64,000 nt of DNA, from positions 256,001 to 320,000 of the forward strand of contig CBDBZY010000003.1 of the NCBI GenBank assembly GCA_965213685.1, read 5' to 3'. Made by a program: the position numbers and the translations under genes. Of this stretch, positions 14,474 to 28,344 are shown piece after piece; positions within the stretch are counted from its first letter, which is position 1; the number at the start of each line of letters is the position of its first letter. This stretch comes from a bacterium (GTDB lineage: Bacteria; UBA8248). The notes under the pieces were generated by a model. The model ran no database searches, had not been told where the DNA came from, and was given only the letters and a program-made list of their open reading frames with translations.

Positions 14474-14859
14474 CGTCTCATGGCCTCTTGGTGCCGGTGG
14501 TGATTCTTTCGGGCAGTCCGTTCGCGCGTCCTGCCCTCTCCCGCGCGGATGTTTGGTTGCGACGTCTGACGCCAAGGCCCCCCGGGCGAAACGCTCCGGC
14601 CGCCGCACCCGCAGCACCGCTCATGATACCACAGGCGGAGAGAGGCGGTTTTTGTCGGCCCACAAGAGATGTGGAAGCGGCGGATGCGCGCAGCGGATGC
14701 GGTTCTCTGGCGCCTTGCCCGGACGGCGGGGAAACGCGCGGCGTTTTCTTGTTGCGCCCCCTTTTTGTTGAGATTCCAGGCTGGTTGCCCCTACAATGCG
14801 GAATCGCGCCGGATGCGCTGCGCGCGCGGGTTCATCTTTTCTGGTTCCGGAGCGGGCAC

Positions 14860-15847
14860 ATGGCGAGGGCGGCGGAGATACAAGCGGGCGAGCGGTTCGA
14901 TTCCTTTTTCCGAATCCGCGAGTACGAGGCGCGCCTGAGCAGGACGGGCAGGGAGTATCTCGACTTGTCTCTGGAGGACGGGTCGGGGGACATCCCCGCC
15001 AAGGTGTGGGAGCCGTCCAGCCAGGTGGAGGGCGTAGTGGCGGCGGGGGACTTCATCAAGGTGCGGGCCGTGGCGGAGAACTACAAGGGCGGGCTGCAGC
15101 TTCGGGTGGAGCGGATGCGCCGGGTGAACGATCAGGATTATGCGAGCGGGTTCCGGCGCGAGGACTGCGTGCGGCGCACGACATACGACATCGACGTGAT
15201 GTGGAAGGAGACGAAGCGCATCGCGCAGAGCTGCCATCCCCTCGTGGCCGCATACCTCGTCGCGATACTGGATGCGTATGAGGAGAAATTCCGCGAGTGG
15301 CCCGCCTCCCAGTACATCCACCATCCCTACCTCGGCGGCTTGCTGGAGCACACGCTTTCGGTCACGAAAACGTGCCTCTATCTCGCCGATAAATATGCGG
15401 TCTCCCGCGACCTCCTGGTCGCGGGCGCGCTCCTGCACGACATCGGAAAGTTTGCGGAGCTCTCCACCGAGGGGGCCACGCACTACACGGCGCGAGGCCG
15501 GCTCCTCGGCCACGTGGTGATGGGGCGCGACGTCGTGCGCGACTGGGCGCGGCGCGAGGGCGTTTTCCCCGAGGGGGAGGCACCGGAAGGGTTTCTCCTG
15601 CATCTGGAGCATCTCATGCTCTCCCACCAGGGGCAGCCGGAGTGGGGGGGCGGCGAAGACGCCCATGTCGGCGGAGGCGCTCCTCCTCCACTACGCCGAC
15701 GACATCGACGCCAAATTCAACCTGATGAAGCGCGCGGTCGAAGAGGATCGCGGAGAGGGGGACTTCACGGAGAGGAACCGCGTCATGGGGCGCGCCTTCT
15801 ACAAGGGCGCGCCGTCCCTCCCCCCGGAGGAGGCGGGCGATGCTTGA
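14860..15847 (+). CDS. yhaM: YhaM-like 3'-5' exoribonuclease (OB fold + HD domain), frameshift in G run near 15645
   Basis: LEDGSGDIPAKVW, HHPYLGGLLEHTL, LLHDIGK, SHQGQPEWG, EALLLHYADDIDAK. Confidence 0.85.
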
Positions 15848-16737
15848 GGCGATCCGGAACGAAAGGACGCGGCGAATCGTGATGCTGGCCGTCGATCACG
15901 GCTACTTCCAGGGGCCGACCTCGGGGCTGGAGGAGCCGGGGAAAACCCTCGGGCCCCTGCTGCCCCACTGCGACGCCGTGAGCCCGACGAAGGGCGTTTT
16001 TCTGCACTGCATGCCGCCGGGGAGTGCCGCGCCGGTCATCCTGCGGGCCTCGGGCGGAAACGCCGTCGTCTATTCGGACCCGGTGGCACTGGAGCGCGAG
16101 CTGGCCATTCGGGGCGCCGGCGTCGAGGACGCGGCGGACCGCGACGCCTTGCGGGGGCCGCATCGCCGAGGAGCTCGTGAGCCGCGAGCTGTCGAACGAG
16201 GCCATCACCGTCTCGGCGGCGGAGGCCCGACGCCTGGGCGCGGCGGGCGTTTCCGTCTCGGTCTACGTGGGGGCGCGCTACCAGAAGGAGTCCATCGTCA
16301 ACCTGGCGCGGATGAGCGAGGAGGGGCGCAGGGAGGGGCTGATCGTCCTCGGCATCACGGCGGTGGGCAGGGAGATGAAGCGCGACGCGCGCTACCTGGG
16401 GCTGGCCGCGCGCATCGCGGCGGAGCACGGGGCGGACGTCGTGAAGACGTATTTTTGCGACCGCTTCGAGGAGGTGGTTCGCGGATGCTTCGTGCCCATC
16501 GTCATCGCCGGGGGGAGGAAGATTCCCGAACGCGAGGCGCTCGCGTTTTGCCGCCGCGCGATCGACGCCGGGGCGGCCGGGGTGGACATGGGCAGAAACA
16601 TCTTCCAGAGCGCGCACCCCGTCGCCATGATCCGGGCGGTGCGCGGCGTCGTGCACGACGACCTCTCGCCCGACGCGGCATACGAGATGTTCCAGGATTT
16701 AATGGGAGCGGCCGGGCGCGGGGCGCCATCCGGATGA
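15840..16737 (+). CDS. lsrF: class I aldolase/thiolase, LsrF/DhnA family (frameshift near 16150)
   Basis: MLAVDHGYFQGPTSGLE, RDARYLGLAARIAAEHGADVVKTY, VPIVIAGG, GVDMGRNIFQS. Confidence 0.8.
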
Positions 16738-17765
16738 GAGGGGCGATGCGGGCGGCGGTCTATTACCGAAACGATGACGTCCGGGTCGAGGAGGTGGCGA
16801 GGCCGCGGGCCGGGGCCGGCGAGTTGCTGCTCCAGACCCGCGCCAGCGGCATCTGCGGCAGCGACGTCATGGAGTGGTACCGCGTCGGGGGCGCGCCGCG
16901 CGTCCTGGGCCATGAGGTGACGGGCGTGGTCGCCGAGGCGGGCGGCGGGGTGGAGAATTTTCGGCCGGGGGATCGCGTGTCCGTCACCCACCACGTGCCG
17001 TGCAACCGCTGTGCGCACTGCCTGCGCGGAGACCACACGGCGTGCGAGACGCTTCGCGCCACGAATTTCGACCCGGGCGGCTTCTCCGAGTTCATTCGGG
17101 TGCCCGCGCGCAACGTGGCGGTCGGGACGTTTCATCTGCCCGATGCCGTCTCGGACGAGGAGGGCGTGTTCATCGAGCCGCTCGGCTGCGTCCCTGCGCG
17201 GCTGGAGGCGCTTGCGGATGACGCCGGGGCTGTCTGTCTTCGTGGTGGGGAGCGGCGTCTCCGGCCTGCTGCACGTCCCAGGCCGCCGCCGCCCTGGGCG
17301 CCGGCCCCGTTTTCGCGGCGGACGTCCATCCCTACCGCCTGGAGGCCGCCCGGAGGTTCGGCGCGCGGCCGCTCCCCCCGTGCGAGCGGATGGATGAGGC
17401 GCTGCGGGAGGCGAACGAGGGCCGCCTGGCGGATCGCGTCATTCTCTGCGCCGGCGCGCCGGCCGCACTGGAAAACGGCCCTCTCGTGCGTCGCGCCATG
17501 CGGCGTCGTGCACCTGTTCGCCCCCGCACCGCCGGAGCACCATCCCCCGGTGGACGTCCACAGAATCTGGCGCGAGCAGATCGCCATCACCGCCACCTAT
17601 GGCGCGGCCCCGCTCGATTTGCGGGAGGCGATGGCGCTGATTCGCGCGCGCCGCCTGCCGGTGGAGGAGCTGATCACCCACAGGTTGCCGCTGGGGGACG
17701 CGCAGGAGGGCTTTCGGCTTGTCGCCCGGGCCGGGGAATCCCTGAAGGTGGTGCTGACGCCCTAG
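16734..17765 (+). CDS. zinc-dependent alcohol/polyol dehydrogenase (several apparent frameshifts 17190-17480)
   Basis: GICGSD, GHE, CNRCAHC, GSGVSG in shifted frame, LITHRLPL...SLKVVL. Confidence 0.85.
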   Translation: MRGAMRAAVYYRNDDVRVEEVARPRAGAGELLLQTRASGICGSDVMEWYRVGGAPRVLGHEVTGVVAEAGGGVENFRPGDRVSVTHHVPCNRCAHCLRGDHTACETLRATNFDPGGFSEFIRVPARNVAVGTFHLPDAVSDEEGVFIEPLGCVPARLEALADDAGAVCLRGGERRLRPAARPRPPPPWAPAPFSRRTSIPTAWRPPGGSARGRSPRASGWMRRCGRRTRAAWRIASFSAPARRPHWKTALSCVAPCGVVHLFAPAPPEHHPPVDVHRIWREQIAITATYGAAPLDLREAMALIRARRLPVEELITHRLPLGDAQEGFRLVARAGESLKVVLTP

Positions 17766-17811
17766 GGCGCGCGACCCCTCCCCCTCTCTCGGGCGAAAGA
17801 CGCGGGGCGCG

Positions 17812-18387
17812 GCCGCCTGCGGTTGGGGGGAGCGTCCGCGCGCGGGGCCGGGGGGGGGGGAGGCGCCTATTCCTCCATCGGGTGGTAGGTCAGCTCGCCC
17901 CTCCGGCCCGCCTTCGCCCGCGGCGGCCTCCTCCTCGTAGAGGGCGTCCGGCGGCGTGTCCTCGATGAATTCCGCCCCCTCTTCGGCCTCCTCCCCGACG
18001 GGTGCCGCCGCCTGCGGTTGGGGGGAGCGCTCCGCGCGTGGGGGCCGGGGGAGGCGCCTATTCCTCCATCGGGTGGTAGGTCAGCTCGCCCTCCGGCCCG
18101 CCTTCGTCCGCGGCGGCCTCCTCCTCGTAGAGGGCGTCCGGCGGCGTATTCTCGATGAATTCCGCCCCCTCTTCGGCCTCCCCGCCGACGGGTGCCGCCG
18201 CCTGCGGGTGGGGGGAGCGCTCCTCGCGTGGGGGCCGGGGGGAGGCGCCTATTCCTCCATCGGGTGGTAGGTCAGCTCGCCCTCCGGCCCGCCTTCGTCC
18301 GCAGCGGCCTCCTCCTCGTAGAGGGCGTCCGGCGGCGTGTCCTCGATGAATTCCGCCCCCTCTTCGGCCTCCCCACCGACGGGTGCC
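17812..18387 (-). repeat. three tandem ~191 bp copies of the recD2 3' end plus downstream spacer
   Basis: Stop-codon complement CTA at 17867, 18058, 18249; same sequence as the genuine end at 18598-18742. Confidence 0.97.
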
Positions 18388-18547
18388 GCCGCCTGCCGGT
18401 GGCGGAGCTGATCACCCACAGGCTGCCGCTGGGGGACGCCCAGGAAGGCTTTCGGCTTGTCGCCCGGGCCGGGGAATCCCTGAAGGTGGTGCTGACACCC
18501 TAGGGCGCGCGACCCCTGGCCCCTCTCTCTCCCGGGCGAAAGACGCG
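18388..18547 (+). repeat. second copy of dehydrogenase 3' end (116 bp) plus intergenic segment
   Basis: 18388-18503 matches 17650-17765 with 5 substitutions. Confidence 0.97.
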
Positions 18548-18597
18548 GCCGCCTGCGGTTGGGGGGAGCGCTCCTCGCGCGGGGCCGGGGGAGGCGC

Positions 18598-21084
18598 CTA
18601 TTCCTCCATCGGGTGGTAGGTCAGCTCGCCCTCCGGCCCGCCTTCGTCCGCGGCGGCCTCCTCCTCGTAGAGGGCGTCCGGCGGCGTGTCCTCGATGAAT
18701 TCCGCCCCCTCTTCGGCCTCCTCCCCGACGACGGGCGCCGCCGCCGCGATGAGCGGCGCGAGATCCGCCTCCCGGCGGATTCGTTCCGGCAGGCCGCTCC
18801 ACCTCCTCCGCACGCGCGCGTTGGCTATCGCCATCCCCAGCGCCTTTTTCGCGCCGAGGAGGACCACCAGGCGCCTCGCCCGCGTGAGGGCGGTGTAGAC
18901 GAGGTTTCTTTGCAGCATCGGGTAGTGCTGGGTGTGAAGCGGGATGACGACGGCGGGGTATTCGCTCCCCTGGCTCTTGTGCACGGTGATGGCGTAGGCG
19001 TGCATCAGCTCGTCGAGTGCCCCGCGCGCGTATTCGATGAGACCCGAGTCAAAGGCCACGCGAACGCTCGCGGCCTCGGGATCGACGCCGCGCACGACGC
19101 CGATGTCGCCGTTGAACACGTCCTTCTCGTAGTTGTTCTTCACCTGGATGAGCTTGTCCCCGGTGCGGAACGTCCGCCCCCCGATCCGCAGCGCGGGCGC
19201 ATCCCCGGCGGGGTTGAGGGCTTCCTGCAGGCGCGCGTTCAGGCTCTGCACGCCGAGCACGCCCCGCTGCATGGGGGAGATGACCTGAATCTCCTCGATG
19301 GGGTCGAATCCGAATCGCTCGGGAATGCGCTCGCGGCACAACTCCACGATGCGGTCCGCGCACTCCTCCGCCTCCGCTTCCTCGATGAAATAATAATCAG
19401 ACGAGGGCCGCCCCTCCCGCCCCCCCTTCCCGTCCCGGGGCATCTCGCCCCGGTTCACGCGGTGGGCGTTCTCCACGATCAGGCTCTTGCGCGCCTGGCG
19501 GAACACCTCGGTGAGCCGCGCGACGGGCAGGGTCTCGGACTGGATGGCGTCGCTCAGGACGTTTCCGGGCCCCACGGAGGGGAGCTGATCCACGTCGCCC
19601 ACCATGATGAACGTCGCCGCGTCCTGCACCGCGCGCAGCAGGTGGGCCATCAGATGGACGTCGAGCATCGAGGCCTCGTCAACGATCACGATGTCCCCGG
19701 TCAGCGGGTTTTCCGCGTCGCGCACGAAGCCGCCCGCGTGCCAGCTGAACTCCAGCAGCCTGTGGATGGTGCGCGCCTCGTGGCCGGTGACCTCGGAGAG
19801 GCGCTTGGCCGCCCGGCCCGTGGGCGCGCCCAGGGTGACCTCCAGGCCGAGGAGGTCCTTGTATATCTCGGTGACGGCGCGCACGATGGTCGTCTTGCCG
19901 GTGCCGGGCCCCCCCGTCACGACGAGCACCTTTTCCGTGAGCGCGCCCTCTATCGCCGCGCGCTGATCCGCGGTGGCCATCCCGCCTTCGAGGGCGCTTT
20001 GCGCGAGGCCGCGCAGGCGCTCGCCGGTCGTTGCGCCGGGGACGCCCCGGCCCCGCAACGCGGCGTCCAGGCGAACCTCATCGCGCGGGGTGCGGATGAG
20101 GGTGGCGAGGCGGCGGGCGACCTCGCATTCCGAGGCGTAGAGCGGGCGCGCGTACACCCGCCTGTCCTCGGCCGAGGCGAGGTTCTCGAGCCGGTTCGCC
20201 GATTCGATCACCAGGGCGCCCGTCCTGCCCAGCCCGTCGATGGCGGCGGCGAGGGGCTCCGGGTCCGTCTCGAGCGTCCGGGCGGTCTCCACCACCAGCT
20301 CCCCGTAGGGCGAGAAGCAGTGTCCCTCGCGCTCTGCGAGCTGGTTCAGGGCGTAGACGGCCCCCGCCGCCAGGCGTTCGGGCGAGTCCGCCGGAATCCC
20401 CAGCTTCCGGGCGACTTGGTCCGCGCTCCGGAAGCCCACGCCGTGAATGTCCGTCGCCAGGCGGTAGGGGTCTTCGCGCAGAGTCTGGATGGATTCGTCG
20501 CCGTAGGTTCGCAGAATTTTCTCGGACAGGTGCAGCGGAATGTCGTATTGCTGGAGGAAGAGCATGATCTCCTTGACCTCGCTCTGGCTCTTCCAGCTCT
20601 CGACGATGGCCTCGCGCTTCTTCTCCCCGAGGCCGCTGATCTCGGTGAGCCGCTCGGGGTGCGCGTCCAGTATGTCGAGCGCACTCTCGCCGAAGCGCTC
20701 CACGATCCGTCTGGCGGTGGCGGGGCCGATGTGCCGAATGATGCCCGACGCCAGGTATTTCTCGATTCCCTCAACCGTCGTGGGCGGCAACGGGTGGGCG
20801 AGGTTGGCGTGGAACTGGCGGCCGAACCTCGGGTGATCCTTCCAACTGCCCCGGAACCGGACGCGCTCCCCCTCCCGAATGCTCGAGAGGTGGCCCACCA
20901 CCGCCACGCGCGGGAAGTCCGCGTCGTCCGGCTGGACGAGCAGAACGCTGTAGCCCGTGTCGTCCGCGCGAAAGCGAATCCGCTCCACCGCGCCGATCAC
21001 CTCGTCTCCCTCATGGGGGAACAGTCCCGTTTTTGGGGGCGGCGTCCGGTGCCTGCGGCGGTATCCTCCGGGTTTGCGCGTCAT
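18598..21084 (-). CDS. recD2: ATP-dependent RecD-like DNA helicase RecD2
   Basis: HPRFGRQF, HhH region, TGGPGTGKTT, APTGRAAKRL, VDEASM, GDVDQLPSVGPG, AITVHKSQGSE; acidic C-tail. Confidence 0.96.
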   Translation of the reverse strand: MTRKPGGYRRRHRTPPPKTGLFPHEGDEVIGAVERIRFRADDTGYSVLLVQPDDADFPRVAVVGHLSSIREGERVRFRGSWKDHPRFGRQFHANLAHPLPPTTVEGIEKYLASGIIRHIGPATARRIVERFGESALDILDAHPERLTEISGLGEKKREAIVESWKSQSEVKEIMLFLQQYDIPLHLSEKILRTYGDESIQTLREDPYRLATDIHGVGFRSADQVARKLGIPADSPERLAAGAVYALNQLAEREGHCFSPYGELVVETARTLETDPEPLAAAIDGLGRTGALVIESANRLENLASAEDRRVYARPLYASECEVARRLATLIRTPRDEVRLDAALRGRGVPGATTGERLRGLAQSALEGGMATADQRAAIEGALTEKVLVVTGGPGTGKTTIVRAVTEIYKDLLGLEVTLGAPTGRAAKRLSEVTGHEARTIHRLLEFSWHAGGFVRDAENPLTGDIVIVDEASMLDVHLMAHLLRAVQDAATFIMVGDVDQLPSVGPGNVLSDAIQSETLPVARLTEVFRQARKSLIVENAHRVNRGEMPRDGKGGREGRPSSDYYFIEEAEAEECADRIVELCRERIPERFGFDPIEEIQVISPMQRGVLGVQSLNARLQEALNPAGDAPALRIGGRTFRTGDKLIQVKNNYEKDVFNGDIGVVRGVDPEAASVRVAFDSGLIEYARGALDELMHAYAITVHKSQGSEYPAVVIPLHTQHYPMLQRNLVYTALTRARRLVVLLGAKKALGMAIANARVRRRWSGLPERIRREADLAPLIAAAAPVVGEEAEEGAEFIEDTPPDALYEEEAAADEGGPEGELTYHPMEE

Positions 21085-21154
21085 GGGCCGATTCCGGTCG
21101 TTCGCGGGCGGGCGAGGCGGTCGTGCGGCGCGCGCGCCCCGGATCGGGTGGGGC

Positions 21155-21964
21155 TCAAGGGGCGCCCTCGTCCGTCCCGGCGCTTTTCGCCTCCTCCCAG
21201 AGCGCTTCGAGGGCGTCGGGCGGCGCGTTCTCGGGCGAGAGTCCCCGGGTGCGCAGGGCCGCCTCGATGTAGTGGAAGCGCGCGATGAAGCGTCCGATGG
21301 AGGCGCGCGCCGCCCCCTCGGCGTTCACGCCGAGCTTGCGGGAGAGGTTCACCGCCGCGAACAGAAAATCGCCCATCTCCTCCTCGGCCGCCCTCTCGTC
21401 CCCTGTGCGCATCGCCTCCCGGAGTTCGGCCCACTCCTCCTCCACCTTCTGCGCCGCCCCGGCCGCGTCCGGCCAGTCGAAGCCCACGCGCGCGGCCTTT
21501 CCCTGCAGCCTCTGGGCGCGCTGGAGGGCGGGCATGGCGAGGGGGACGCCGTCGAGAATCGAGGCGGCGGCCCGGGCGTTGTCCGAGCGGTTGTTTCTTT
21601 TGTTGATCTCCCAGTTCCGCAGCACCTCGCGGCTCGTCTCGGCGCGCGCGTCCTGAAACACGTGGGGATGGCGGTCGATCATCTTTTGCGCCAGGGCGCG
21701 GGACGCCTCCTCCGCGTCGAAGAGGCCCCGCTCCTTGGCGAGCTGGCAGTGGAAGAGCACCTGCAGCAGAAGGTCGCCCAGCTCCTCCTTCAGCATCCCG
21801 GGGTCGCCCGCCTCGATGGCCTCCATCACCTCGTAGGCCTCCTCGATCAGGTAGGGCTTGAGGGTGTGATGGTCCTGCTCCCTGTCCCAGGGGCAGCCGT
21901 CTGGTGCTCTCAGGCGCGCCATGACCTCCACCGCGTGCTCAAAACCGCTTTTCTTCTCGCTCAA
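21155..21964 (-). CDS. mazG: nucleoside triphosphate pyrophosphohydrolase
   Basis: GCPWDREQ, EEAYEV, EELGDLLLQV, RHPHVF, VGFDW, EEMGDFLF. Confidence 0.95.
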   Translation of the reverse strand: MSEKKSGFEHAVEVMARLRAPDGCPWDREQDHHTLKPYLIEEAYEVMEAIEAGDPGMLKEELGDLLLQVLFHCQLAKERGLFDAEEASRALAQKMIDRHPHVFQDARAETSREVLRNWEINKRNNRSDNARAAASILDGVPLAMPALQRAQRLQGKAARVGFDWPDAAGAAQKVEEEWAELREAMRTGDERAAEEEMGDFLFAAVNLSRKLGVNAEGAARASIGRFIARFHYIEAALRTRGLSPENAPPDALEALWEEAKSAGTDEGAP

Positions 21965-22107
21965 GGCGCGCCTCGCGTTCGGGAGTCTGCTGCGTTCGGC
22001 CAGTGTCGGCCAATGTACACCGAACGCCTGGAAAAGCCAACAACCCTGCTTAACGGGGAGGGTGCCCATGGCGCGGGATGGGCGAACGCTCCGGGATTGC
22101 GCGCCCG

Positions 22108-22155
22108 GCCCATCATGTGGGATGACGAAATGCATATGAACACAAAATGTTGTGT
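22108..22155. promoter_or_regulatory. tandem NrdR-box-like operators
   Basis: ACACAAAATGTTGTGT (22140-22155) fits acaCwAtATaTwGtgt; weaker GCCCATCATGTGGGAT 32 bp upstream; TTGACA at 22161. Confidence 0.6.
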
Positions 22156-22221
22156 TTCGCTTGACATTTCTCCCCGGATCGGGGAAATTCCCCTTCCGTG
22201 CAAACCCTGAGGAATTTCCCC

Positions 22222-24054
22222 ATGAAAGTAGCCTCGCGCATACGCATACTGCCGGAATCGCTCGCGAACCAGATCGCCGCCGGCGAAGTGGTCCAGCGCC
22301 CCGCCTCCGCCCTGAAGGAATTGGTGGAGAACAGCCTCGACGCGGGCGCGGGGCGGGTGGAGGTCGACCTCGAGTCGGGGGGCGTCGCGCGCGTGCAGGT
22401 CGCCGACGACGGGCATGGCATGAGCGAGGACGACGCGCTTCTTTGCCTCGAGCGCCACGCGACGAGCAAGATAGCGACGGACGCGGATTTGGGCCGCGTC
22501 GCCACCCTCGGCTTCCGGGGCGAGGCGCTGCCGAGCATCGCCGCCGTCTCGAAGATGGTGATCACCGCCAGGAGGCCGGAAGACGCCCTGGGCACGCAGG
22601 TGCGGGTGGAGGGCGGGAGGATACAGCGCGTCACCGAGATGGGGGCGGCGGTCGGCGCCCGGGTCGAGATGCGCTCGCTGTTCTACAACGTGCCGGCGCG
22701 GCGGAAGTTCCTGAAAAGAAGGGAAACCGAGCTCGCCCGCTGTCTGGAGGTGGTGAGCCAGGCGGCCATGGCGAACCCGAACGTCGCCTTCACCCTGCGC
22801 CACGGGAAAAAGACGCTGCTGGAGCTGGGCGGCTCCGGGGAGACTCTGTCCCGCGCGGCGGAGCTCGTGGGGAAGGCGGCGGTCTCCCACTTGATAGAGA
22901 TTCCGACCGCAACGTCCGGGAACATGCGGTTCGGCGGCTGGGCGGGAGCGCCCGGCCTGAACCGCTCCACCCGCGACGCGCAGTATCTCTTCGTGAACGG
23001 GCGCCCCATCCGCGACCGCCTCCTCGTCCACGCGGCGTATGCGGCCTACCGGGGCTTCCTGCCGGTGAAGCGCCATCCGGTGTTCATCCTCTTTGTGGAT
23101 GTGCCGCACGAGGACGTGGACGTGAACGTCCACCCCGCCAAACAGGAGGTGCGCTTTCGCTTCGCGTCCGGCGTGTATGACCTGGTGCGCGAGAGCGTCT
23201 CCGCCGTCCTGGGCGCGCGTCCACGGCCGAGGCCGAGGGGCGCGTTCGCCCGCCCGGCTCCCGCACGGGCGGAGGGGGCCGCGCGCATCCTGGCTCCCCG
23301 CCCGCCTGCGTCTGTGAAGCCCCCCTCCCTGGTGGGCGGCGGCGGATACTTCGGGGCGGGGGACGACGCCGCCTCCGCGCGGACGCTGGCCGGCTCCGCC
23401 TCGTCGGGTGCCCCGGCGGGGCGCTCCCCGCTGGAGCGAACCCTCGAGCCGCCTCATCCGGCGGACCCCGTGCTTTTGTCCGAATGCCGCTATCTCGGCC
23501 AGTGGGAGGGATGCTTTCTGCTGTTCAGCGCCCCGCAGGGGCTGGTGCTCGTCGATCAGCACGCCGCGCACGAGCGGGTGCTCTACAACCGGTTTCGGGA
23601 TCAGTTCCGAGACGGGTGCGTGCAGAGCCAGGCGTGCCTCGTGCCCGAGGAGGTGCGCCTGCGGCCCGAGGAGGCGCTGAGCCTGGAGGCGCATCAGGAG
23701 GACCTCCTGCGCTCGGGGTTCGAGCTGGAGCGCGCGGGGGCCGGCGAATACCGCATTCTGGCCGTGCCGGCGCTTCTGGCGGACAAGGACCCCGCAGGGG
23801 CTGTGCGCCAGATAATAGAGGGGCTGGCGGAGCTGGATCAGCCCGTCAGCTTCGCCGACCTGATCGACGGCGTCATCGCGCGGATGAGCTGCCGGGACGC
23901 TGTGAAGGCTGCGCAGCTCCTGCGCCCCGAGGAGGTGGCCGTCCTGGTCGAGGAGCTGGAGAGAACGCCGGGCCGGTGGACCTGCCCGCATGGCCGGCCC
24001 ATCATGCTGGTGATGGGCACGGAGCCGGTGCGGAGGCGCTTCCTGCGGAGCTGA
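22222..24054 (+). CDS. mutL: DNA mismatch repair endonuclease MutL
   Basis: NQIAAGEVV, RHATSKI, GFRGEAL, DVNVHPAKQEV, DQHAAHERV, TCPHGRP. Confidence 0.97.
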   Translation: MKVASRIRILPESLANQIAAGEVVQRPASALKELVENSLDAGAGRVEVDLESGGVARVQVADDGHGMSEDDALLCLERHATSKIATDADLGRVATLGFRGEALPSIAAVSKMVITARRPEDALGTQVRVEGGRIQRVTEMGAAVGARVEMRSLFYNVPARRKFLKRRETELARCLEVVSQAAMANPNVAFTLRHGKKTLLELGGSGETLSRAAELVGKAAVSHLIEIPTATSGNMRFGGWAGAPGLNRSTRDAQYLFVNGRPIRDRLLVHAAYAAYRGFLPVKRHPVFILFVDVPHEDVDVNVHPAKQEVRFRFASGVYDLVRESVSAVLGARPRPRPRGAFARPAPARAEGAARILAPRPPASVKPPSLVGGGGYFGAGDDAASARTLAGSASSGAPAGRSPLERTLEPPHPADPVLLSECRYLGQWEGCFLLFSAPQGLVLVDQHAAHERVLYNRFRDQFRDGCVQSQACLVPEEVRLRPEEALSLEAHQEDLLRSGFELERAGAGEYRILAVPALLADKDPAGAVRQIIEGLAELDQPVSFADLIDGVIARMSCRDAVKAAQLLRPEEVAVLVEELERTPGRWTCPHGRPIMLVMGTEPVRRRFLRS

Positions 24055-24092
24055 GCCGGCTCCCCGGGCGCGCCCGCTTGGGGGAAACGCCC

Positions 24093-24122
24093 TTGACACC
24101 CGGGGCGCGCGCGGAGGACAAT
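24093..24122 (+). promoter_or_regulatory. putative sigma70 promoter for guaBA
   Basis: TTGACA-N18-GACAAT. Confidence 0.45.
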
Positions 24123-24220
24123 GGCGAGGCAAGAAGGCCGGGTTGGGGGGGGACTGGACGTAAGGTTTTTGCCGCCGCCGCGTCCTGATGGAGAAGCCCG
24201 CTGGCTTCGGCTTCTTGTGA

Positions 24221-27591
<3,371 letters not shown>

Positions 27592-27831
27592 GCGCTGAAA
27601 ATCCGCATCGGGTTGTGTTTGTTGAACGGGATGGATATTTTGAGAGGCGCAATTCTGATCGCTGCGTGAAATGTCGCGTTGCCTGCTGTTTCGCGCCGCC
27701 GATGCCGCCGAATTAAGGCTTGCTTGCTTGCGTGCGGTGTCGGAGGCGAAGGGGGCGACGGGTTCTGAGATGCCGCCGACTAAAGTTTGCTTGCGTTCTT
27801 GCGGGGGGTGAGGAAAGTGGGTCGAACGAGG

Positions 27832-28344
27832 ATGGCGTCTGTCGTTTTCGCATCGGTTTTTCTGTGGGCGTCGGCGGTCTCGCAGGCGGCCGCCAGCGGC
27901 CATTCGGACCATTCGGGGCACGGGCACGGAACGCCAAAGCCCCATGCACACGGGGTGAATCCCCATGCACACGGGATGAAGGAGCATTCCGTCAGGGTGA
28001 TTCCGCCGAACGCCCCGAACCCGCCTGAAGTGAAGATACGCCTGGAGCGGGACGCGCACGATCCGAGCGGGGTCAACCTGTTCCTGGAGGTGAAAAACTT
28101 CCGCTTCACTCCGGAGGAGGTCAACAAAACCTCGAAAATTCACGAGGGGCACGCGCACCTCTACGTCAACGGGAAGAAGAGAACCCGGCTGTACGGGCGG
28201 GCGCATTTCATCCAGGGTTTGCCCCGGGGAGCGGTGCAGATACGGGTCACGCTGAACACGAACAAACACGAAGACCTCAGCCACAAGGGCAGGCTGATTC
28301 AGGACACGGCGGAGTTCCACAACAGGACGGAAAAACGCCTTTGA
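27832..28344 (+). CDS. secreted His-rich hypothetical protein (possible metal binding)
   Basis: Signal peptide; GHSDHSGHGHG, PHAHG twice; EGHAHLYVNGKK..RLYG...VTLNTNKH. Confidence 0.7.
   Translation: MASVVFASVFLWASAVSQAAASGHSDHSGHGHGTPKPHAHGVNPHAHGMKEHSVRVIPPNAPNPPEVKIRLERDAHDPSGVNLFLEVKNFRFTPEEVNKTSKIHEGHAHLYVNGKKRTRLYGRAHFIQGLPRGAVQIRVTLNTNKHEDLSHKGRLIQDTAEFHNRTEKRL

Follow-up and report, generated by a model that had tools for sequence, protein, structure and literature searches.

Between a zinc-type alcohol dehydrogenase gene (ADH, + strand) and the convergent gene of the RecD2 helicase (recD2, - strand), the bacterial DNA studied here carries an array of orphan gene tails. Within the window, i.e. 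the whole 64-kb stretch that was analyzed (G000:C3:256001-320000), the final ~45 codons of recD2 recur at this locus in three orphan copies and the final 38 codons of ADH in one, and we confirm that the array is real. Very probably it represents a microhomology-mediated tandem duplication of nested form that extends over the 3' ends of both convergent genes, without a function of its own.

An earlier note on this DNA, made from its letters alone, had described three tandem recD2-tail copies, a second dehydrogenase tail and then the real end of recD2. Repeat searches bear out this arrangement, with the coordinates corrected as follows (X4 is one of the runs whose read-derived contigs are considered below):

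16746-17765, + strand: ADH, zinc-type alcohol dehydrogenase (Pfam ADH_N, E 6e-24)
17650-17765, + strand: copy 1 of the ADH tail; the part that was duplicated, still joined to the live gene; begins at GCCGCCTGC
17766-17866, no strand: spacer 1, which contains 11 consecutive G as well as GCCGCCTGC at 17812; in X4 contig 17729-17884, with one gap at 17804
17867-18012, - strand: orphan recD2 tail c1, its upstream end of the ancestral type; extra C at 17898 as assembled
18007-18202, - strand: ~190-bp unit 2, i.e. partial spacer 18007-18057 and orphan recD2 tail c2 18058-18202
18197-18393, - strand: ~191-bp unit 3, i.e. partial spacer 18197-18248 and orphan recD2 tail c3 18249-18393
18388-18503, + strand: orphan ADH tail 2, the last 38 codons and stop, joined to c3 at GCCGCCTGC (18388)
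18504-18597, no strand: spacer 2, with GCCGCCTGC at 18548; in X4 contig 18467-18610 with 0 differences
18598-21084, - strand: live recD2 (828 aa), with the duplicated tail from 18598 to ~18745 and GCCGCCGCC at 18737 as the recD2-side microhomology

Tandem Repeats Finder reports 17805-18402 as a repeat of period 191 with 3.1 copies, 93% matches and a score of 1027. In repeat searches a 175-nt stretch is seen four times (at 17850, 18040, 18231 and 18580; 79-95% identity to the reference copy), and a 136-nt ADH-tail stretch is seen twice, at 17649 and 18387, the copies being 738 nt apart and 95% identical. These matches are far above chance level. No second site in the assembly carries the array, which has left an ADH-recD2 gap of 832 nt as against ~95 nt before the duplication. 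The identity of RecD2 is given by its Pfam domains, namely OB_YrrC, HHH_RecD2, AAA_30, SH3_13 and UvrD_C_2. The open reading frames (ORFs) in 17650-18600 are read-throughs of spacer and gene-tail pieces. The earlier note described the orphan tails as devoid of start codons; c3, however, lies inside a 56-aa ORF with a GTG start (18249-18419). As assembled, the frame of c1 is shifted by the extra C at 17898.

The evidence on origin lies in the joints, i.e. the points at which the array brings together segments from the two genes and the spacer. The microhomology GCCGCC(TGC) lies at each of the three novel joints. Its parental sites comprise GCCGCCTGC, found in both spacers (17812 and 18548) and in the ADH tail (17650), and GCCGCCGCC in recD2 (18737). 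The joints at 18007, 18197 and 18388 each carry GCCGCCTGC; they read ...GACGGGTGCCGCC-GCCTGC... and take the form of GGGTGCCGCCGCC joined to TGC.... This 9-mer has 9 occurrences on the + strand of the window, 6 of which fall within the array locus. The locus thus displays the pattern of joints and parental repeats seen in microhomology-mediated tandem duplication, with a short repeat at both ends of each duplicated segment and one repeat at each joint.

The joints are also present in reads. Eight runs, drawn from four studies, contain part of 14500-22500, and one run that matches the window in part bears the label of a sponge metagenome:

X4, study P3: share of words 0.95
X5, study P3: share of words 0.95
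X6, study P3: share of words 0.88
X7, study P3: share of words 0.66
X1, study P1: share of words 0.32
X2, study P1: share of words 0.15
X3, study P2: share of words 0.10
X8, study P4: share of words 0.23

Read-derived contigs of four of these eight runs (X4, X6, X1 and X8) were aligned to 17000-19400; data at the contig level drop rare variants, and holes in their cover prove nothing. Contigs of X4 cross the c1-c2 joint (17971-18070, depth 17.4), the c2-c3 joint (18154-18266, depth 13) and the joint of c3 with ADH tail 2 (18345-18476, depth 14.5), each with 0 differences from the window. The contig over spacer 2 (18467-18610) has a depth of 13.3, and the flanks are represented by long contigs up to 17738 (depth 16.8) and from 18701 on (depth 16.2), the latter matching the live recD2 over 18701-19400 with 0 differences. 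The core shared by all tails (18587-18721) reaches a depth of 38.7. As the depths at the joints approximate those of the flanks, and the depth of the core is a multiple of them, the novel joints exist in the reads at about single-copy depth. In X6, a different sample of study P3, a contig (18343-18476) again crosses the joint of c3 with ADH tail 2 with 0 differences. X1 contributes one 290-nt contig, which runs from the ADH tail through a spacer-1-like stretch into a recD2 tail and ends at a match to 18190. An exact scan of public metagenome contigs returned 0 matches for the joint motif and 0 for a 30-nt tail stretch, so that no independent assembly is available from that collection.

The same contigs expose a recurrent type of error in the assembly. 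The window contains false 1-nt insertions at 17192, 17277, 17472 and 17804, each in a homopolymer of C, A or G: the base at 17192 and 17277 is absent in X4, X1 and X8, that at 17472 in X4 and X8, and that at 17804 in X4. Removal of the three false bases that fall in ADH leaves its frame open, and 271 of 349 aligned columns then match the ADH of G001 as against 214 of 367 without correction. ADH is intact, and its appearance as a pseudogene is an assembly error. The extra C at 17898 in c1 is probably also a false insertion of this kind. In the neighbourhood of ADH, a gene for a DeoC-type aldolase (16024-16737) and an HD-domain gene (14488-15882) likewise look frame-broken in the ORF list, and may have been affected by the same type of error.

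In other species the locus is found in single copy. ADH and recD2 are convergent in all 18 relatives whose loci were examined, where each of the two tails occurs once and that of recD2 is complete. In all 22 other species of the genus, the ADH part and the recD2 part are each matched a single time, and there is no tail array. The ADH-recD2 gaps in the relatives range from 252 to 6164 nt; a search with the G000 spacers against the relatives' intergenic DNA gave nothing meaningful (best E 0.16).

From these observations we infer the following course of events. The single-copy ancestor would have consisted of ADH, a ~95-nt spacer and recD2, and would have contained three short direct repeats: GCCGCCTGC once within the ADH tail and once within the spacer, plus GCCGCCGCC within recD2, ~45 codons ahead of the stop. 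A ~355-bp unit may then have been doubled as the repeats of the two genes engaged in slippage or template switching, so that ADH and spacer 1 were followed by a tail, the joint and ADH tail 2, and these by spacer 2 and recD2. The joint made in this step would read GCCGCCTGC, and would thereby present a 9-nt match to the repeat in the spacer. In a third step, a ~190-bp unit composed of a partial spacer and a tail would have been doubled in the left arm and expanded to three tails, after which the orphan pieces would drift as non-coding DNA. Since both genes retain one full copy, the event would cost nothing, and the array can persist.

The orphan tails are not identical to one another. The variants that the earlier note had listed are present in the window: c2 reads ...PVGGEAEEGAEFIENTPP..., with ENTPP and with the second glycine of VGG encoded by GGC, whereas c3 reads ...PVGGEAEE...EDTPP..., uses GGT and carries, as assembled, a silent change at 18303; the corresponding part of the live gene reads ...PVVGEEAEE.... 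As assembled, c1 has a D-to-G change at 17917 besides its extra C, and all the orphan tails are one codon shorter than the live gene. A T at 18039/18229, an extra G, and a C at 18182/18373 are derived states common to c2 and c3, which identifies these two as the youngest pair. The residues of the orphan tails are the same as those of the live tail except for 1-3 residues, of which the VGG edge alone is verified in reads. The GGC and GGT variants, both spacers, ADH tail 2 and the three joints all lie within X4 contigs with 0 differences (barring the one gap in spacer 1). Among the X4 contigs listed, none extends over 17885-17970 or 18071-18153, and the private changes of c1 (17898 and 17917) and the ENTPP of c2 (18148/18150) are accordingly known from the assembly only.

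A sister strain, represented by X8, gives these variants a polarity. One X8 contig (18576-18908) connects the spacer, by way of the tail, with the body of recD2 and contains no joint; it has 3 nt missing at 18726 and a T at 18736, and its live gene thus has the c1-type tail state of the orphan copies. The lack of the Val codon is best taken for the older state, and as the X8 live gene shares it, the orphan tails would preserve an older form of the recD2 tail. The live recD2 of the window would later have acquired one more GAC codon (GAC to GACGAC), together with a T-to-C change; X4 contig 18701-19400 shows both, and it is these later changes that would make the orphan tails resemble a separate lineage. 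The proposal of the earlier note that the copies descend from a common ancestor unlike the current live tail is supported. The X8 ADH tail has C at 17665 and 17685, as does orphan ADH tail 2.

In this genus, the C-terminal tail of RecD2 (18598-18760 in the window; L012-L029) is characterized by the motif PPDxLYExEA and a terminal ELTYHPxxE, with acidic linkers of varying length between them. Both motifs are kept in 19 of 19 species, and the copies of the array show no difference in them. Judged by this pattern, the tail looks like a docking tail for a partner.

Several observations weigh against a simple history of neutral nested duplication. Over 205 aligned columns, 6-9 substitutions separate the units, and over 116 nt the two ADH tails have 5; X8 and the window differ by only 7 letters in ~780 nt of ADH, so that the orphan copies are more diverged than the strains. 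This divergence would have to mean that orphan pieces drift fast, that the array is older than the split from X8, or that the first event joined diverged alleles. Further, at two read-verified sites 5 nt apart, all four combinations (G-C, G-T, T-T and T-C) occur among the four units, which requires either mutations that recur or an exchange among the units. X8 has both spacer types, at depths of 12.2 and 9.35, which could reflect two strains or a duplication left unseparated in the contigs. On the side of the data, X4 is possibly the source sample of the window, in which case its support is independent of the assembler and not of the study; moreover, the read support consists of contigs for each joint, and no long read was seen to span the whole array. 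Taken together, the divergence, the four combinations and the spacer types of X8 allow drift, exchange between units or an origin from diverged alleles, and none of them demands a function.

Among these options, an origin from diverged alleles appears unlikely, though it deserves consideration. It posits that the first ~355-bp event was an unequal exchange between alleles, e.g. with imported DNA of another strain, so that the arms were ~4% apart from the start. The occurrence of both spacer types in X8, the two C residues that the X8 ADH tail shares with orphan ADH tail 2, and arms that differ more than the strains do in the flanking genes all fit such an exchange. However, ADH tail 2 has three private changes that are absent from X8, X8 is known here from short contigs only, and drift of unconstrained DNA explains the same data.

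A second option, which we regard as very improbable, is that the units of the array exchange sequence and sometimes reach the live recD2, forming a small donor pool that reshapes the acidic linker before PPDxLYExEA/ELTYHPxxE, with the X8 boundary as a product of conversion. Still less credible is the full version of this idea raised by the earlier note, namely a reservoir of silent cassettes in which the orphan tails donate to the 3' end of the live recD2 by gene conversion and thereby vary its acidic C-terminal tail. Partial, promoterless 3' copies do adjoin an expressed copy, the four-combination sites suggest exchange or recurrent mutation among units including the one beside the live gene, and the X8 live tail has a cassette-type boundary. 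Yet the verified coding difference between the orphan tails and the live tail amounts to one or two residues at the upstream edge, the conserved motifs of the tail do not differ between copies, and the X4 live tail contains no cassette variant at the level of contigs, which are blind to rare variants. Further, RecD2 is by its domains a cytoplasmic SF1 helicase with no evident pressure for variation, tail arrays are found in 0 of the 22 other species of the genus, and the state of X8 is more simply ancestral. We consequently find no support for the reservoir.

Established silent-cassette systems, such as pilE/pilS of Neisseria, vlsE/vls of Borrelia and the MgPa repeats of Mycoplasma genitalium, concern surface antigens and feature many strongly diverged cassettes, with mosaics in the expressed copy. 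The array shares with them an expressed gene with nearby promoterless partial copies. It differs from them in that the gene codes for a cytoplasmic helicase, the three cassettes are nearly identical, and no mosaic is seen in the X4 contigs. The earlier note had alternatively proposed scars of repeated recombination that replaced the 3' end. The first half of this survives, in that the pieces appear to be non-functional by-products of repeated recombination-type events; the second does not, as the layout is a head-to-tail duplication across convergent ends with every joint at GCCGCC(TGC), and nothing has been replaced. Integrating islands that bring a replacement 3' end for their target, a tRNA or tmRNA gene, give rise to direct repeats made of gene 3' ends that have been displaced or duplicated. 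Unlike these, the array has no integrase or cargo, and its unit consists of tail and spacer only, at 190 bp.

It is very hard to credit that the array is an artefact in which strain haplotypes or noisy long reads were joined in series. The assembly is error-prone, as the four false insertions in 17000-17884 attest; the two spacer types of X8 show up as alternative paths; and the G000 bin is mixed, with 49 contigs of >60% GC (3.07 Mb, including the contig of the window) alongside 22 contigs of <=60% GC (4.9 Mb). Nevertheless, novel joints are impossible to obtain from haplotypes of a single-copy locus. Moreover, the X4 contigs that cross all three joints at flank depth, like the X6 contig that crosses one of them, agree fully with the window, and since the X4 contigs lack its indel errors they are not a mere restatement of the assembly. 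Genomes of other species of the genus measure 2.9-4.6 Mb, which fits the high-GC part of G000.

A regulatory by-product, in which the array widens the gap between the convergent genes or recD2 is damped by read-through RNA from ADH that includes its 3' end three times in antisense, can be set aside as barely plausible: the gap did grow from ~95 to 832 nt and a gap without terminator-like sites makes read-through conceivable, but a scan of 17400-19000 found 0 promoter-like and 0 terminator-like sites, the predicted RNA folds of the spacers are ordinary (z-scores from +0.16 to -1.35, none unusual), and nothing comparable is conserved in the genus.

Other features of the spacers and their surroundings were considered on their own account. 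A G-quadruplex in the G-rich half of the spacer, sought by eye, was dropped, as it has three clear G runs and no fourth. A search of six relatives' loci against Rfam gave one sub-threshold match, to anti-hemB (20.9 bits as against a gathering score of 49.5), which was dismissed. In 15 of the 18 relatives (one by a weak partial match) the ADH-recD2 gap contains 1-5 copies of a small gene without a Pfam match, arranged in tandem in 11. The tandem copies have a period of ~440-560 bp. The products of the small gene, 65-100 aa long, combine a hydrophobic helix at the N terminus with a C-terminal half that is charged, and the number of copies varies among species (e.g. L028:1625-3262 in G017, and the ADH-recD2 gaps of L013-L029). 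In G006 (L017) and G008 (L019) the tandem unit of the small gene extends 30-38 nt into the coding 3' end of recD2, resulting in short orphan recD2 termini. In G000 the small gene is absent between ADH and recD2; three tandem copies are found at C40:1696-3029 (period 508) and one at the end of C10 (53270-53491).

The G000 assembly includes further duplications. At C5:22042-22857 (L031:1543-2358) a 408-bp unit is present twice, with 95.8% identity, across the site where the 3' ends of ychF (-) and of a gene for a GH3 glycosidase (+) converge, an architecture that is the same as that of the ADH/recD2 array. At C25:33929-35021 (L030:1530-2622) a 541-bp unit, also present twice and 98.6% identical, extends from the 3' end of the 2-oxoacid dehydrogenase E1-beta gene to the 5' end of the E2 gene, and leaves an orphan E1-beta tail ORF of 125 aa. 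A 372-bp unit is repeated 3.8 times with 93% identity at C13:51295-52728 (L032:1496-2929), with no convincing gene inside. The high-GC contig C48 displays a dense repeat field of ~11 kb (16679-28177), with units of ~73-75 bp and multiples thereof. The bacterial contigs of G000 have 62-69% GC; tandem repeats abound in the low-GC contigs, whose GC content is 54% or less.

Nested duplication at microhomology, the reading that we prefer, has a general counterpart in the microhomology-mediated tandem duplications described from bacteria and other life (Wei et al., PNAS 2026, PMC13167724). In that account, a segment between short direct repeats, with arms of 4-25 bp, is doubled head to tail, leaving one repeat at the joint and permitting later growth to three copies; such duplications are mostly neutral and are depleted from coding sequence. 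The array agrees with the case outlined there in its head-to-tail copies, its repeat at the joint and its growth to three. It departs from it in being nested, with two unit sizes (~355 bp and ~190 bp) built on the same motif; in having end points inside two genes that both stay whole because they are convergent; and in copies that are already 3-4% diverged.

The array is thus a real, ordinary nested duplication scar and nothing new in kind. To the known phenomenon it adds the polarity of the tail variants, as derived from a sister strain, and confirmation of the three joints at the level of reads. For annotators it holds two warnings: orphan gene tails are not to be taken as cassettes, and homopolymer indel errors in this assembly mimic pseudogenes, as in the case of ADH. 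Above all, it offers a clean, read-verified natural example of the stepwise building of a tandem repeat by microhomology, in which the first duplication would make a longer microhomology and so seed the next one, and it illustrates why such scars collect where genes end tail to tail.

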